A stretch of 64,000 bases of DNA from Escherichia coli (GCF_003334815.1 NZ_QOWO01000022.1); one strand, 5' to 3'; numbered from the stretch's first letter, positions 38,207 to 42,577 are shown. Translations and numbers: made by a program. The notes: generated from the letters alone by a model not told the origin.

Positions 38207-41200
38207 TCATCGGCCGGGGCTGTGGGATTGTGCCTGTTGCAGAGTTTTTTCCTGCCTGTCCTCCGCCTTTTGGCTGTCAGACCACTCTTTCCAGGTCTGC
38301 TCAAAACCCAGAGAGCGGAAAAGCTTGTCCGGTTGCTCTTCCGGTTTGTGGATGGCGGCAAACAACGGGGAGTCCTGTTGCTTCAGGTGAAACTGCATTA
38401 TTTGTGGGGACGGACGCTGATGATTATTCTCATCATGGTTAACAGCTTCACCGTAACCGGCAAACTGCAGACCGTTATCCGTCAGGGCATTGATGACCAG
38501 CTGACGGTTGTCAGCTGACGGGGTGGCCAGTGCCGGGTAAAGGGTGCCGTTCAGGCGGACCACGCCCTGCAGATGATCATCTGCGCTGTGGACCAGCAGA
38601 AGATTCAACTGACGATTGTCCTTATCGGCAGAGGCGATGGCTGGTATCAGTTCATTGGGGGCATTACCAGCGAGGGGGAGTCGCATTGATTGATCCTGAG
38701 GTGCTGATGCAGGTTGCCTGTCTTCACCAATGTACAGATTATTGGGAGGATTTTTGGGGGAGCGAACTTCCTGCATTATCTGTGGCCAGTGTTGTTGCAT
38801 CTGTAACATCACCTGGCTGAATGTTGCCATCGGAAAATCCAGGATATGCTGACCAGCATGAGGATGGTCATTATCGACGGTAATGCCGTTACTGACAGGA
38901 GTCATGGCCCAGATATTACGGATACGATCCCGTGTTTCACCGGACAGCCGGAATGTTTCTCTCGCCTGCAGCGTCAGTGTGACGGGGTTGCCTTTCTGGT
39001 GGTTTTTGACCAGTTCTTCCAGGCCGTTTCCCCAGTATTCCCGTTTGCCACTGCGGTTGGTGAGCTCCACAAAAAAGCAGCGCCCTTTTCCGGGCGCATA
39101 CTCTTTTTCTCCGTAGTTTGTCAGGACGGCAGTCACACTTTCACCGGGTCTGAGTTTGCCGGGGGGCTCTTCCTCCGGTGTGTCGGGTTGCTGTGGCTGT
39201 GCACTGACAGCGACGTTTCCTGCTGACGATGACGGGGCGGCTGGTTGTTCCGGTGTGCCGGCCCGGGGGGCTTCAGCTTTTGCCGTGACCGGCGCTTCCG
39301 GATGCGGTGTTTCAGCCGTACTGCCTGCAGTTTGCTCTGTTTCTGCTTTCGGTGACACAGGGGGGGCCGGTTGTGCCATTGTTGTCTCTTCCGGTGACAG
39401 GCGGTTGAGTTCCGGCGTGGGTCTGTGGGTGACGATGGCATCATGCGCCATCCCTTTCTCCTGGCGGAGTTTTTCCAGCGCAGCCCTCTGGACCGGGAGT
39501 TTCATGCGAACCTTGATGTCATATTCGACAATCAGCTGCATGGCTTTTTGTTTAAAGGCATCACTGCCGGTCAGCTCGATAACGCCGCCATAGAAGTTGG
39601 TGGCCACAGCAAGGGCAGCCAGGACCTTTTTGTCATCAGTGCTGGCACCATCCACCATTTCCAGACGGTTGAGTTTATCCAGGAATGCCGGTTCGCCGTC
39701 GACGCGGCAGAGCGCAGTATTGTCGGGTAACTCATCGTATGTAAGATTTTTAATAATCTCGTCCAGGTTGTGCCGCTGCGGACTGTTGGGCCGGCGGGGC
39801 GCAAAGATAATCGTGTCCGGTTCTGCTGACGATGTGTCTTCCGGGCTGGTTTCAGGTGGTGACGGTGGTGCTGCGGCCTCTGTCGCAGTTTCGGCCTCCG
39901 TAAGCTTGTTCTCCTGAATAACGGGAGGTTCGGCGGTACGTGATTTTCCACCGGTCAGAAAACGGCGCAGGCGGCTGAAAAGCGATGCTGTTTCAGGGCG
40001 GGCTGTTTCATTCGCTGTGCTGGTCTCAGTGGCAGACACTGGACGCTCTTCCTTCGGTTTATCTTCTGCCGTTGGTTCAGGGGTTGCCTGCTGTACGGGC
40101 TGAATTTCTGCAGGTTCAGAAGGTGAGGCTGTTTCTGCTGTATCGGTGTGGTGAGCTGTGGTCATCACAGTAACATCAGCATTGAGGTCTTCCGCAACTG
40201 TGTCCAGGTCGTCATCGATAGCGGCAGCGGCACTCTCTTCACCTGTATCAGTGGCAGACATAACGCCCTCTTCCTGAGGTTTATTTTCTTCCGTTGGTTC
40301 AGGGGTTGCCTGTTGAACAGGCTGCATCCCGGCAGGTTCAGAAAGTGTCTTTGTCTCCGCGTTGTCGGTGCTGTGAACAGTGGCATTCCCCGGAGCATCA
40401 GCATTGAGGTCTTCCGCAAATGCGCTCCAGTCGTCAGCGCTGCCCATGGAGACCTGCTGTGGTTCTTCAGGTTGCGTTGTGGCGGTGTGCTGTGTCCCGG
40501 TTGCGTCGGAGACGGATGTTTCCGGTGTGTCGTAACTCCGGAGGGCAGTGGTGGCGGAAGAGGTGTTCTCTGCGTCATTATCAGTAGCAGACACTACGTT
40601 CTCCTGTGGTTTATCTTTAGCCGATGGTTCAGGACTGGCCTGCTGCACTGGCTGAATCTCTGCAGGTTCAGAAGGTGAATCTGTTTCTGCTGTGCCGGTG
40701 TCGTGAGCCGTGGTCGTAACTGTGGCGTCAGCATTGGGTTCTTGTGCTAATACATTTCGGTCGTCAGTGGTGGCGGCAGAGGTATTCTTTGCGTTGCTGT
40801 CAATGGCAGAAACAGCATTCACCTGCGGTTCATTCGGGGAGGCTGTCCCTGCAGTTACCGACTGCAGGGATGCATATGCTGCATAGTCATCTTCATATGC
40901 CTGATTGTCTGTCTCTTCTGCAGGGATGTCATAAGGATGATTCTGTTCCGACACTGCCGGTTCAGGGGCTGTGCTCTGTCTGTTTTCAGGGTACACTTGT
41001 GGCTTCTCATCTTTTACCGGTGTGAATATCAGGTTGCCGATCACGATAGCTTCACGGCGGTCAGTAGTGTCATTGTTGGGCGTGGGGATACCGATATATT
41101 CTAACTGTGCGTTCATGGCTCGCTGAAAGGCGTCTCGTCCCCTGCTGGCGTCCAGGTCATTGAAATCGGTCAGTCCCTGTGCTTTTTCCGCCTCCGTAAA

Positions 41201-42223
41201 GGCCGGAATAATGACTTCGCCATGCGTGCTTGCGGCAGCTTTTTGGGCACTTGAAACACCTTTGTTAATTTTCCGTTGATGGTCGTTGTCGGCACAGAAG
41301 ACAAAGGGGCTGTCAGTCCAGATTTGGCGGGCATTTTCTGCCACGTCAATCATATTGCCGGCATCAACTGTCATCAGAACCGGAAGGCCGGTGGCTTCGT
41401 GCAGGGAGGCTGCAGTTGCGTAACCTTCCGCAAATAACAGGGGACGGCCATTTTCCGGGGTTCCGAAGGTGAACCAGTTACCGGTTTTCTCTGAGTCTTT
41501 CAGAATGCGGGCATCCTTCCCGCCGGTGACAGGAATACGCTGGTATGAACGTATTTCTCCCCGGCTGTTACTGAAAGGGATGACGAGTTCATTCTTGTTA
41601 TTCAGACGGACGCCCGGTGCGGCAAGGATCCCTTTTCGGGTCAGGTATTCATGCTCTGTTGCCTGTGGTAACTGGTTAATATAGGAGCGGGCATACCGGG
41701 CCTGTTTGTTGTACTGTTGCTGCAGTTTACGTGCGTTATCATCGCGCTGTTGCTGAGCGAATGCCCGCAGATGCAGTCTGGCCAGAGGATCGTGTTGTTC
41801 TCCGCCGGAAAATACCCAGTTTGTGGGACTGTCATCGGCGCTCCGGTAGTCGCGGTACCAGCCGGCGGGGCGCCCATCAAGATAGGCCTTGTATGCGCCA
41901 CTTTTGGCCCCTTTTTTGTCATCCCGGGTGGCGACTCTGTGTATGGCGCCATCCATCTGTGGCAATCCCTGAATAACCAGTCCGGCGTTTTCCAGGACCT
42001 GAGCAAATTCGGTGACCGGATCGCCGGCATCCATCGACAGTTCCTGCGGCCGGGGTAACCAGCGCTCCAGCAGTGAAAGTTCGGTACCCGCCCGGGCATA
42101 CCAGAGTTTTTTTTCTGGATCCCATGCGACAGCTTTGCGGCCATTTAACGGGGGGACTGCATTTTTTACGGCTTCTGTCTCCTCAGGCGGGACAGCAAGC
42201 CAGGTACGATATCTGGACTTCAT
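38207..42223 (-). CDS. sog: Conjugative DNA primase (Sog-like; TOPRIM primase domain plus long repetitive acidic region)
   Basis: 1338 aa. N-terminal TOPRIM/DnaG-like signature LLFAEGYATAASLHEATGLPVLMTVDAGN...FVFCADNDHQ. Followed by about 700 aa of acidic Pro/Thr/Glu-rich repeats and a C-terminal domain. Confidence 0.75.
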   Translation of the reverse strand: MKSRYRTWLAVPPEETEAVKNAVPPLNGRKAVAWDPEKKLWYARAGTELSLLERWLPRPQELSMDAGDPVTEFAQVLENAGLVIQGLPQMDGAIHRVATRDDKKGAKSGAYKAYLDGRPAGWYRDYRSADDSPTNWVFSGGEQHDPLARLHLRAFAQQQRDDNARKLQQQYNKQARYARSYINQLPQATEHEYLTRKGILAAPGVRLNNKNELVIPFSNSRGEIRSYQRIPVTGGKDARILKDSEKTGNWFTFGTPENGRPLLFAEGYATAASLHEATGLPVLMTVDAGNMIDVAENARQIWTDSPFVFCADNDHQRKINKGVSSAQKAAASTHGEVIIPAFTEAEKAQGLTDFNDLDASRGRDAFQRAMNAQLEYIGIPTPNNDTTDRREAIVIGNLIFTPVKDEKPQVYPENRQSTAPEPAVSEQNHPYDIPAEETDNQAYEDDYAAYASLQSVTAGTASPNEPQVNAVSAIDSNAKNTSAATTDDRNVLAQEPNADATVTTTAHDTGTAETDSPSEPAEIQPVQQASPEPSAKDKPQENVVSATDNDAENTSSATTALRSYDTPETSVSDATGTQHTATTQPEEPQQVSMGSADDWSAFAEDLNADAPGNATVHSTDNAETKTLSEPAGMQPVQQATPEPTEENKPQEEGVMSATDTGEESAAAAIDDDLDTVAEDLNADVTVMTTAHHTDTAETASPSEPAEIQPVQQATPEPTAEDKPKEERPVSATETSTANETARPETASLFSRLRRFLTGGKSRTAEPPVIQENKLTEAETATEAAAPPSPPETSPEDTSSAEPDTIIFAPRRPNSPQRHNLDEIIKNLTYDELPDNTALCRVDGEPAFLDKLNRLEMVDGASTDDKKVLAALAVATNFYGGVIELTGSDAFKQKAMQLIVEYDIKVRMKLPVQRAALEKLRQEKGMAHDAIVTHRPTPELNRLSPEETTMAQPAPPVSPKAETEQTAGSTAETPHPEAPVTAKAEAPRAGTPEQPAAPSSSAGNVAVSAQPQQPDTPEEEPPGKLRPGESVTAVLTNYGEKEYAPGKGRCFFVELTNRSGKREYWGNGLEELVKNHQKGNPVTLTLQARETFRLSGETRDRIRNIWAMTPVSNGITVDNDHPHAGQHILDFPMATFSQVMLQMQQHWPQIMQEVRSPKNPPNNLYIGEDRQPASAPQDQSMRLPLAGNAPNELIPAIASADKDNRQLNLLLVHSADDHLQGVVRLNGTLYPALATPSADNRQLVINALTDNGLQFAGYGEAVNHDENNHQRPSPQIMQFHLKQQDSPLFAAIHKPEEQPDKLFRSLGFEQTWKEWSDSQKAEDRQEKTLQQAQSHSPGR
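40058..40750. repeat. Three imperfect tandem repeats (about 200-250 bp each) inside the primase gene
   Basis: Repeated DNA blocks ttcttccgttggttcaggggttgcctg...cagcattgaggtcttccgcaa at about 40058, 40281 and 40600. They encode SEPAEIQPVQQA(S/T)PEP... three times. Confidence 0.6.
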
Positions 42224-42286
42224 GTCGTTCTCCGGGGATTAAATATGAGGGCGTTGTGATACGCCGGGATGATGGACAAAAGAGGG

Positions 42287-42577
42287 CTATTCTGGTCCGT
42301 GCCATTCACGGGGTAATTCTGTGCGGTGTCGGTACCACCAGGGACGTCCCGATGCCTGCTTACCCTGAAGCAGGCTGTACAGACGTATACAGAGGGTGCG
42401 GACTGTCCAGCCGGAATATCCCAGGAGCATAAAAAACAGCAGAATGCCGCTGCACACCCAGAATGTCGTTTTTGACGGATACGGAAACAACAGCAGGTAA
42501 ATCATGGTAAACGGCAGGGGGACACCATAAATGTTGAGCGGTGGTGTTACATCCCGCCAGAAGCCTTCGCGTTTCAT
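42287..42577 (-). CDS. traK: Small type IVB membrane protein TraK
   Basis: 96 aa, hydrophobic; lies between traJ and sog with a 4-nt overlap to traJ. Confidence 0.45.
   Translation of the reverse strand: MKREGFWRDVTPPLNIYGVPLPFTMIYLLLFPYPSKTTFWVCSGILLFFMLLGYSGWTVRTLCIRLYSLLQGKQASGRPWWYRHRTELPREWHGPE

Follow-up and report, generated by a model that had tools for sequence, protein, structure and literature searches.

We analysed a stretch of 64,000 nucleotides (nt) of Escherichia coli DNA (GCF_003334815.1, NZ_QOWO01000022.1; hereafter the window), in which a minus-strand open reading frame at 38207-42223, read directly from the window and starting with an ATG, encodes a protein of 1338 amino acids (aa) with a calculated mass of 146 kDa and a pI of 4.8. 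Judged by its homology and its position, this gene is the sog DNA primase of an IncK2/Z conjugative plasmid (I-complex, with an MPF_I, Dot/Icm-like transfer system), a widespread gene that is already annotated. Taken as a whole, the data are best explained, with a probability of roughly 0.8, by a sog gene that would specify a long SogL protein and probably also a SogS-type shorter form, and that carries old and stable repeats within a disordered acidic tether.

The relationship to SogL of the IncI1 plasmid R64 (1255 aa) extends over the full length of the protein (BLASTP, 1283 bits, 53% identity over 1351 aligned columns). Specifically, about 405 N-terminal and about 540 C-terminal residues are strongly conserved, while the middle is essentially unalignable. 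In addition, the gene occupies the same position as sog in R64: it is flanked by traJ and traK(icmT) on one side and by traL, traM(dotI) and traN(dotH) on the other, within an MPF_I (Dot/Icm-like) transfer operon, and the traK/icmT, sog, traL/traM order is also kept in distant homologues. The gap between traK (42287-42577, minus strand) and sog measures 63 nt (window positions 42224-42286) and, unlike in R64, does not contain a nuc gene (phospholipase D family nuclease, PLD). The proposal of a Sog-like primase made in a first-pass annotation of the window, prepared from the sequence alone, is therefore upheld by the homology to R64 SogL, by the shared operon position, and by the Toprim domain, EGYATA motif and PHROG primase match listed below.

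At least 23 E. coli plasmids in PLSDB carry the sog gene with 100% identity, and 29 carry it with at least 99%; the plasmids with the identical gene are typed IncK2/Z, MOBP and MPF_I. The exact 1338-aa protein occurs on at least 1000 contigs, the longest of 151 kb, and the listed members of its cluster differ by only 2-8 aa in length. The current RefSeq name is only 'LPD7 domain-containing protein'. An NCBIfam scan of the whole Sog protein matched no family, and sequence searches of the PDB with its N-terminal 405 aa and its C-terminal 533 aa returned zero matches.

The protein is built, from the N-terminus, of DUF5710 plus a TOPRIM primase (aa 1 to about 400), an acidic linker of about 400 aa, an LPD7 domain, a second linker and a beta-rich C-terminal region, and R64 SogL has the same order of primase, acidic linker, LPD7 and C-terminal domain. 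The features of the gene, all on the minus strand, are as follows.

38207-42223, minus strand: sog (SogL-type) coding sequence; open reading frame, 53% identical to R64 SogL, copies on IncK2/Z plasmids annotated as DNA primase or LPD7 domain protein
42230-42233, minus strand: GGAG Shine-Dalgarno (SD) sequence, 6 nt upstream of the SogL ATG, from reading of the sequence
42053-42208, minus strand: DUF5710 domain, aa 6-57 (Pfam PF18974, E 8.6e-9)
41096-41788, minus strand: primase catalytic region, aa 146-376 (PHROG 2249 DNA primase, E 2.5e-55)
41132-41434, minus strand: Toprim_3, aa 264-364 (Pfam, E 2.4e-5)
41411-41428, minus strand: EGYATA motif, aa 266-271, located in the sequence
39809-41008, minus strand: acidic linker rich in Ala, Thr, Glu, Pro and Ser, aa 406-805 (composition, net charge -59; AlphaFold confidence)
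39458-39826, minus strand: folded alpha/beta domain with LPD7 (Pfam PF18821, aa 840-922, E 1.4e-10; folded over aa ~800-922)
39176-39448, minus strand: second disordered linker, rich in Ala, Pro and Thr, aa 926-1016 (composition and AlphaFold confidence)
38210-39169, minus strand: beta-rich C-terminal region, aa 1019-1338, predicted OB-fold-like barrels and a terminal helix

In the AlphaFold model, which covers aa 410-1338 and was built from a 64-sequence alignment, the local confidence score (pLDDT) is below 50 over aa 410 to about 800, with the exception of a short helix at aa 596-607. It is above 90 for the LPD7-containing alpha/beta domain (aa ~800-922), below 50 again at aa 926-1016 and above 90 at the beta-rich aa 1019-1338. 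The TOPRIM-type primase with EGYATA and the conserved C-terminal region (LPD7 plus C-terminal domain) are those of the Sog class, and the fusion of LPD7 (large polyvalent protein-associated domain) to a primase in one large protein is that of a polyvalent protein. As a separate observation, a perfect 6-bp GC-only hairpin (GCGCCC-loop-GGGCGC) lies inside the coding sequence at 39080-39097, at the start of the OB-like region; T-runs follow it on both strands, as in a terminator, and such matches are overall no commoner than in shuffled sequences.

Repeat units of the acidic linker

The acidic linker contains three in-frame units, together spanning 40058-40828 and all with lengths that are multiples of three, and the head of a partial fourth.

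40610-40828, minus strand: repeat unit U1, aa 466-538, 73 aa (219 bp); repeat search, alignment and hidden Markov model (HMM) of the units
40280-40609, minus strand: repeat unit U2, aa 539-648, 110 aa (330 bp); repeat search, alignment and unit HMM
40058-40279, minus strand: repeat unit U3, aa 649-722, 74 aa (222 bp); Tandem Repeats Finder, repeat search, alignment and unit HMM
40004-40057, minus strand: head of a partial fourth unit, PKEERPVSATETSTANET (PKEERPVSATE...), aa 723 to about 740; repeat search

U2 shares its head and tail with the other units and has in addition an insert of 37 aa (aa 560-596, 40436-40546). Because this insert sets U1 apart, Tandem Repeats Finder alone sees 1.9 copies, reporting an array with a 222-bp period at 40026-40436 (score 534). 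The repeat search returned a unit of 209 nt three times, at 40050-40258, 40272-40480 and 40602-40810, with spacings of 222 and 330 nt.

The units were analysed by global alignment, by an HMM of the units and by shuffle tests. They share 56-62% identity at the protein level and 72-74% at the nucleotide level (global alignment), and their similarity lies far beyond chance, since local alignments compared with shuffles gave z = 16-26 for protein and z = 39-61 for DNA. A blastp comparison of the linker against itself gave zero off-diagonal matches. A recurring peptide occurs three times in the units, as SEPAEIQPVQQASPEP (aa 518), SEPAGMQPVQQATPEP (aa 628) and SEPAEIQPVQQATPEP (aa 702).

The first-pass annotation had described three long imperfect repeats of about 200-250 bp in an acidic linker, placed at 40058-40750, and had quoted this peptide. 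The three repeats, the acidity of the linker and the peptide were all recovered. The lower boundary proved exact and the upper one about 78 bp short, and the proposed size agrees with the units of 219 and 222 bp, but not with the middle unit of 330 bp.

A search of 5.8 billion proteins with the linker identified no relatives of the repeat unit outside Sog, the matches listed being partial Sog fragments of E. coli and Shigella only, with no full-length proteins among them. In our literature searches no paper describing repeats in the Sog linker was found.

Internal start at codon 410

In R64, SogL (1255 aa) is accompanied by SogS (844 aa), which arises by initiation within the sog frame (PMC6112013). 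These lengths place the SogS start at Met412, in agreement with the coordinates for pESBL (PMC4288162); SogS coordinates were also sought in annotated IncI records, where they are not annotated. Pairwise alignment places R64 Met412 opposite codon 410 of the window gene, which is a GTG.

40994-40996, minus strand: in-frame GTG, codon 410, homologue of the R64 SogS start (alignment; GAGAA at 7-nt spacing)
38207-40996, minus strand: predicted SogS-type short isoform, 929 aa, 100.5 kDa, pI 4.6, with the whole linker and the C-terminal domains (deduced from the sequence)
Sister sog alleles used for comparison: L003, 601-4698; L004, 601-4662; L005, 601-4626; plasmid pMS7163B (L022), 31023-35084

Codon 410 is ATG in the sister alleles L003-L006, L008, L013, L014 and pMS7163B, which have the identical upstream sequence ggtaaaagatGAGAAgccacaa. 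The putative internal start of the window gene is at a position homologous to that of R64, with a GTG preceded by GAGAA here and an ATG preceded by GAGGA there, both SD sequences at 7-nt spacing. The calculated pairing of SD with anti-SD at codon 410 is -2.7 kcal/mol in all K/Z alleles, close to the gene median, versus -6.1 kcal/mol in R64. The 60-nt mRNA segment around this site is among the least structured of the gene, reaching the 92nd percentile in the window allele and the 99th in L005 and R64.

The conservation of this start was surveyed in 25 homologues, two of them close and 23 being cluster representatives with 20-60% identity in the C-terminal domain. Of the 25, 21 have a Met 26-53 residues after the DFNDx motif, which marks the end of the primase domain; its usual context is E-E/K-x-T-M, and the codons of this context provide the SD. 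Of the four others, three carry a Val at or near the boundary position. Seven distant homologues were read at the DNA level: their boundary codon is ATG or GTG, and its SD ranks among the top 1-16% of positions within the respective gene. Two of the Val cases were open to this check, and both are GTG codons with strong SDs (-7.1 and -10.3 kcal/mol). These family-wide start codons and SDs argue that a nested short isoform would be an ancestral feature of the Sog family, with GTG as a used alternative start. The suggestion, made in the first-pass annotation, of an in-frame start just downstream of the TOPRIM domain finds its counterpart in GTG410. A promoter scan upstream of GTG410 yielded nothing above chance, so that a separate transcript is not indicated. 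On these grounds, it is quite probable that the window allele makes the 929-aa short form from GTG410.

We consider it unlikely, though deserving of attention, that the window allele makes the full-length protein only, the internal start having been silenced by a degraded SD and by the change of Met410 to Val (GTG). This possibility draws on the SD pairing energy at the gene median, on the restriction of the Val variant to one subclade of window-like alleles, and on the fact that initiation at GTG is usually less efficient than at ATG. However, the weak GAGAA is shared by the sister alleles with ATG, among which pMS7163B is conjugation-proficient and needs its sogLS gene; two distant homologues have a GTG with a strong SD at the primase/linker boundary; and the region around codon 410 is unusually unstructured. 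In addition, transfer of the IncI1 plasmid pESBL requires the SogS-coding part, whereas insertions in the SogL-specific part are tolerated (PMC4288162).

Further in-frame start codons were evaluated and rejected. Three of them lie in the repeats, where SD-plus-start sites occur on the minus strand.

40594-40592, minus strand: GTG544, SD -7.4 kcal/mol
40261-40259, minus strand: ATG655, SD -6.3 kcal/mol
40039-40037, minus strand: GTG729, SD -5.7 kcal/mol

The unit heads read KPQE(E/N).V(V/M)SATD, and their Gln-Glu codons form an SD-like CAGGAG/GGAAGAGG followed by an in-frame start codon. As the SD-like sequence derives from these codons and the sites are not conserved in the sister alleles, they were discarded, and they are probably fortuitous. 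M370 and V394 were likewise rejected, their conservation or their SD being wanting.

Other plasmids, too, are known to have large primase genes in which an internal start in the same frame yields a C-terminal product. TraC of the IncP plasmid RP4 is one example, and belongs to a different transfer system than Sog. Pri of the IncM plasmid pCTX-M3 is another, only distantly similar to SogL (30%/23%; PMC6112013).

Charge, disorder and a conserved helix in the linker

The linker (aa 406-805) contains 78 Asp plus Glu versus 19 Lys plus Arg, which gives a net charge of -59 and a pI of 4.05. The linker of R64, with a nearly equal charge of -57, has no internal repeat (z 0.4-0.5) and cannot be aligned to it; the window protein, 83 aa longer than R64 SogL, contains a 73-aa unit in triplicate. 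For a wider comparison, the C-terminal 533 aa were searched against the full library, which gave 219 representatives at E <= 1e-3, and 22 full-length proteins with recognisable primase motifs, window and R64 included, formed the linker comparison set. In all of these 22 the middle region, which measures 115-732 aa, has a net negative charge (-11 to -66). Eight of them contain strong internal repeats (z > 10), which are unrelated in sequence and in period (14-185 aa). Given a repeat-free R64 linker of near-equal charge and such variable linkers in the family, selection appears to maintain the acidity, the disorder and roughly the length of the linker, but not its sequence, and acidic linkers of this kind seem to have been built repeatedly by duplication. 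By composition and by family comparison, the linker would mainly be an acidic flexible tether joining the primase to the LPD7/OB-like C-terminal part.

One element departs from this picture of a variable linker.

40406-40435, minus strand: acidic-aromatic motif DDWSAFAEDL, aa 597-606, inside U2 (sequence comparison; AlphaFold)

This motif coincides with the sole helix predicted by AlphaFold in the linker (aa 596-607). It is invariant in all K/Z alleles, occurs twice in a rare four-unit allele described below, and has counterparts in R64 (DKDWREFEAEL, sharing a DW..F..EL pattern) and in the more distant family members P0028 (DDWNAFAEDL) and P0036 (QDWQHFEEEM). U1 and U3 carry the non-aromatic versions DDRNVLAQEP and DDDLDTVAEDL, respectively. 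In these comparisons the predicted helix is the sole linker element conserved between plasmid groups. By analogy only, bacterial SSB, T7 gp2.5 and RPA-type proteins have acidic tails, and the window Sog pairs predicted OB-fold-like barrels with a disordered acidic segment that carries an acidic-aromatic motif.

A distinctly unlikely alternative to the tether would be an array of sequence-specific docking motifs, in which the number of units would tune export or activity. The partners in such multivalent binding could be the coupling complex of the type IV secretion system (T4SS), with its TrbA/DotM-like and TrbC/DotL-like proteins, a chaperone, a recipient protein, or the OB-fold region in cis. 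A conserved pattern is indeed common to all units in all alleles, and the ratio of non-synonymous to synonymous divergence (omega) between the paralogous unit cores is 0.2-0.5, despite a synonymous divergence (dS) of 0.44-0.73; with 47 codons in each core, these estimates are noisy. The invariance of the DDWSAFAEDL helix, its doubling in the four-unit allele and its recognisable forms in R64, P0028 and P0036 point in the same direction. Moreover, TrbA of the window plasmid (7920-9209, minus strand) has the C-terminal cytoplasmic domain of DotM (PF23127, E 3.3e-47), and DotM of Legionella binds Glu-rich effector signals (PMC8740702; bioRxiv 10.1101/2024.05.09.593423). On the other hand, only one unit of three has the aromatic DW..F version, the R64 linker supports the same function without repeats, and other family members have unrelated repeats or none. 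Furthermore, the repeats have a threefold higher omega than the folded domains, and the signals described so far as recognised by DotM are C-terminal, not internal.

Distinctly unlikely as well is that the acidic linker, more than a passive spacer, is itself a regulatory or recognition element. Its Glu/Asp-rich repeats and the conserved DDWSAFAEDL helix would then either form a signal for export, internal to the protein, that the DotM-like TrbA of the plasmid reads, or serve as an intramolecular mimic of single-stranded DNA that would sit on the OB-fold region until the transferred strand is met. Were this true, unit number (three versus four) and start codon (ATG versus GTG) would be dials for the amount and the form of exported Sog.

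Returning to the explanation given at the outset, a long and a probable short Sog with repeats in a disordered tether, several points weigh against it. The internal start is a GTG, and its GAGAA is weak, so the short form could be scarce. The change from ATG to GTG is moreover a mere transition (Met to Val), so that retention of start capacity is by itself weak evidence, and we found no protein, ribosome-profiling or activity data for any IncK2/Z Sog. As to the linker, its predicted disorder derives from AlphaFold confidence and composition only. Finally, the second half of the units has a scattered pattern, LNAD..H.T.TAET....EPA..QPV.Q...E.T.EDK, which recurs across units and alleles with the omega values given above, and which a pure spacer would not require.

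Age and stability of the units, and the role of Sog

In the primase domain, the window allele differs from the about 90%-identical L005 allele by a dS of 0.22. The unit cores differ among themselves by 0.44-0.73, and the duplications are therefore older than the divergence of the IncB/O/K/Z sog alleles. Read through these synonymous distances, the repeats are old in-frame duplications of a stretch of about 73 aa of the first linker.

The unit HMM found three units in each allele sampled down to about 90% nucleotide identity (L003-L008, L014 and pMS7163B), and no units in R64-type genes. Three-unit alleles range from 1338 to 1365 aa, differing by small indels and chiefly by a 36-bp (12-aa) micro-repeat, EENASVATADTG, at the head of U2, which is present in three copies in L003, two in L004, one in L005 and two in pMS7163B, the window allele having one diverged copy. 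Across the alleles compared, the element that commonly varies in copy number is this micro-repeat, not the units of about 220 bp.

The pMS7163B gene deserves particular mention. It is an IncB/O/K/Z-type Sog from a plasmid with an IncB/O backbone and an IncZ replicon (PMC10286972), and a check of its sequence confirmed the same three units and the ATG at codon 410, together with DDWSAFAEDL. Unlike the window gene, to which it is about 90% identical in nucleotides, it encodes 1353 aa and has two 12-aa micro-repeats. Under the name 'sogLS' (31023-35084) it is required for conjugation, with a log2 fold change (log2FC) of -4.08 by transposon-directed insertion-site sequencing (TraDIS; PMC10286972, S1 Table).

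The rare four-unit allele (NZ_OQ534116-119; 4392 bp, 1463 aa; L013:1111-5502, which is NZ_OQ534119.1) contains the long U2-type unit twice. The two copies are about 98% identical over their central ~190 nt, with an exact run of 98 nt, which indicates a recent unequal crossover. P0005, a partial protein from draft genomes, was considered as a gene-converted three-unit allele, and this was ruled out by the NZ_OQ534119 sequence, which shows four units.

Exact direct repeats in the window allele of sog reach 24 nt at most. Read mapping and de Bruijn assembly would not be misled by so short a repeat, which, together with identical copies in many independent assemblies, removes for this allele the concern of assembly collapse raised in the first-pass annotation. 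The related idea of a variable copy number holds for the rare four-unit allele, while every K/Z-type allele sampled has three units and common variation consists of small indels and the micro-repeat. The near-identical units of a hypervariable locus are not seen here, nor does copy number differ among close relatives (three units in all alleles sampled at 90-100%). As far as these alleles tell, whole-unit copy number is nearly fixed at three in IncB/O/K/Z-type alleles and stably inherited. That the repeat region is unstable, copy-variable or an assembly artefact, with a possibly wrong three-unit structure in the window, is very improbable: the four-unit allele with its 98-nt run, the one to three micro-repeats and the draft contigs mentioned next speak for it, whereas the 72-74% identity of the units, the 24-nt limit, the multiples of three, the three units in each allele down to 90% identity, the at least 23 independently deposited identical plasmids and the at least 1000 contigs of up to 151 kb, whose listed members vary by 2-8 aa, speak against it.

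Many NCBI and Logan draft assemblies (proteins P0001-P0026) contain contigs of 0.5-1.5 kb that begin and end within the sog linker, from which we gather that short-read assemblies sometimes break there. The intragenic repeats of a window-type linker being too short as a cause, our guess is that co-resident I-complex plasmids may be responsible.

Between alleles, the linker is the most diverged part of sog, with 78% nucleotide identity versus 93-98% in the flanks. Between-allele omega is 0.45-0.55 in the repeats versus 0.15 in the primase domain, and dS is also higher in the linker than in its flanks, indicating a mosaic history. Against L005, specifically, the last 323 codons differ by a dS of 0.057, the primase and LPD7 parts by about 0.22 and the repeat units by 0.40-0.51, a pattern that suggests recombination between sog alleles.

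Elsewhere in the window, the following were noted.

11357-15520, minus strand: 1387-aa autotransporter with a TIGR01414 beta-barrel at aa 978-1387, cargo beside the transfer region
17820-19376, plus strand: 518-aa phosphoethanolamine-transferase-like protein, with weak CptA/EptA matches far below family cut-offs
20334-21920, minus strand: 528-aa protein with a sigma-70 region-4-like helix-turn-helix (aa 132-200) and a TnsA-like endonuclease domain (aa 332-440)
19890-20046, plus strand: sok antitoxin RNA (Rfam, 124.5 bits, above the gathering score)
9352-9441, minus strand: AgrB-family antisense RNA (Rfam, 49.3 bits, above the gathering score)

As regards function, the export of Sog to the recipient, its priming activity, its suppression of dnaG and the action of its C-terminal part on single-stranded DNA are known for IncI1 ColIb-P9/R64 only (PMC6112013, PMC8406263), and Sog is among the few proteins known to pass a conjugation T4SS in hundreds of copies (PMC8406263). 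By homology with these plasmids, to which the window gene is related over its full length, the long form would prime complementary-strand synthesis, while the shorter form, lacking the primase, would start at GTG410 on the same mRNA. Both forms would pass through the T4SS into the recipient, and there the C-terminal part may act on the incoming single strand.

In conclusion, the linker finding by itself leaves the understanding of conjugation as it is. I-complex plasmids are major vehicles for genes that encode ESBLs (extended-spectrum beta-lactamases) and AmpC, and for their annotation it is of use that the IncB/O/K/Z Sog differs from the R64 model only in its triplicated disordered acidic linker; for assemblers and typers, the linker region of the window allele can be trusted. 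Three or four units, one to three micro-repeats, an ATG or a GTG start and one conserved helix together make up a natural allelic series for the role of the linker and of the isoforms.

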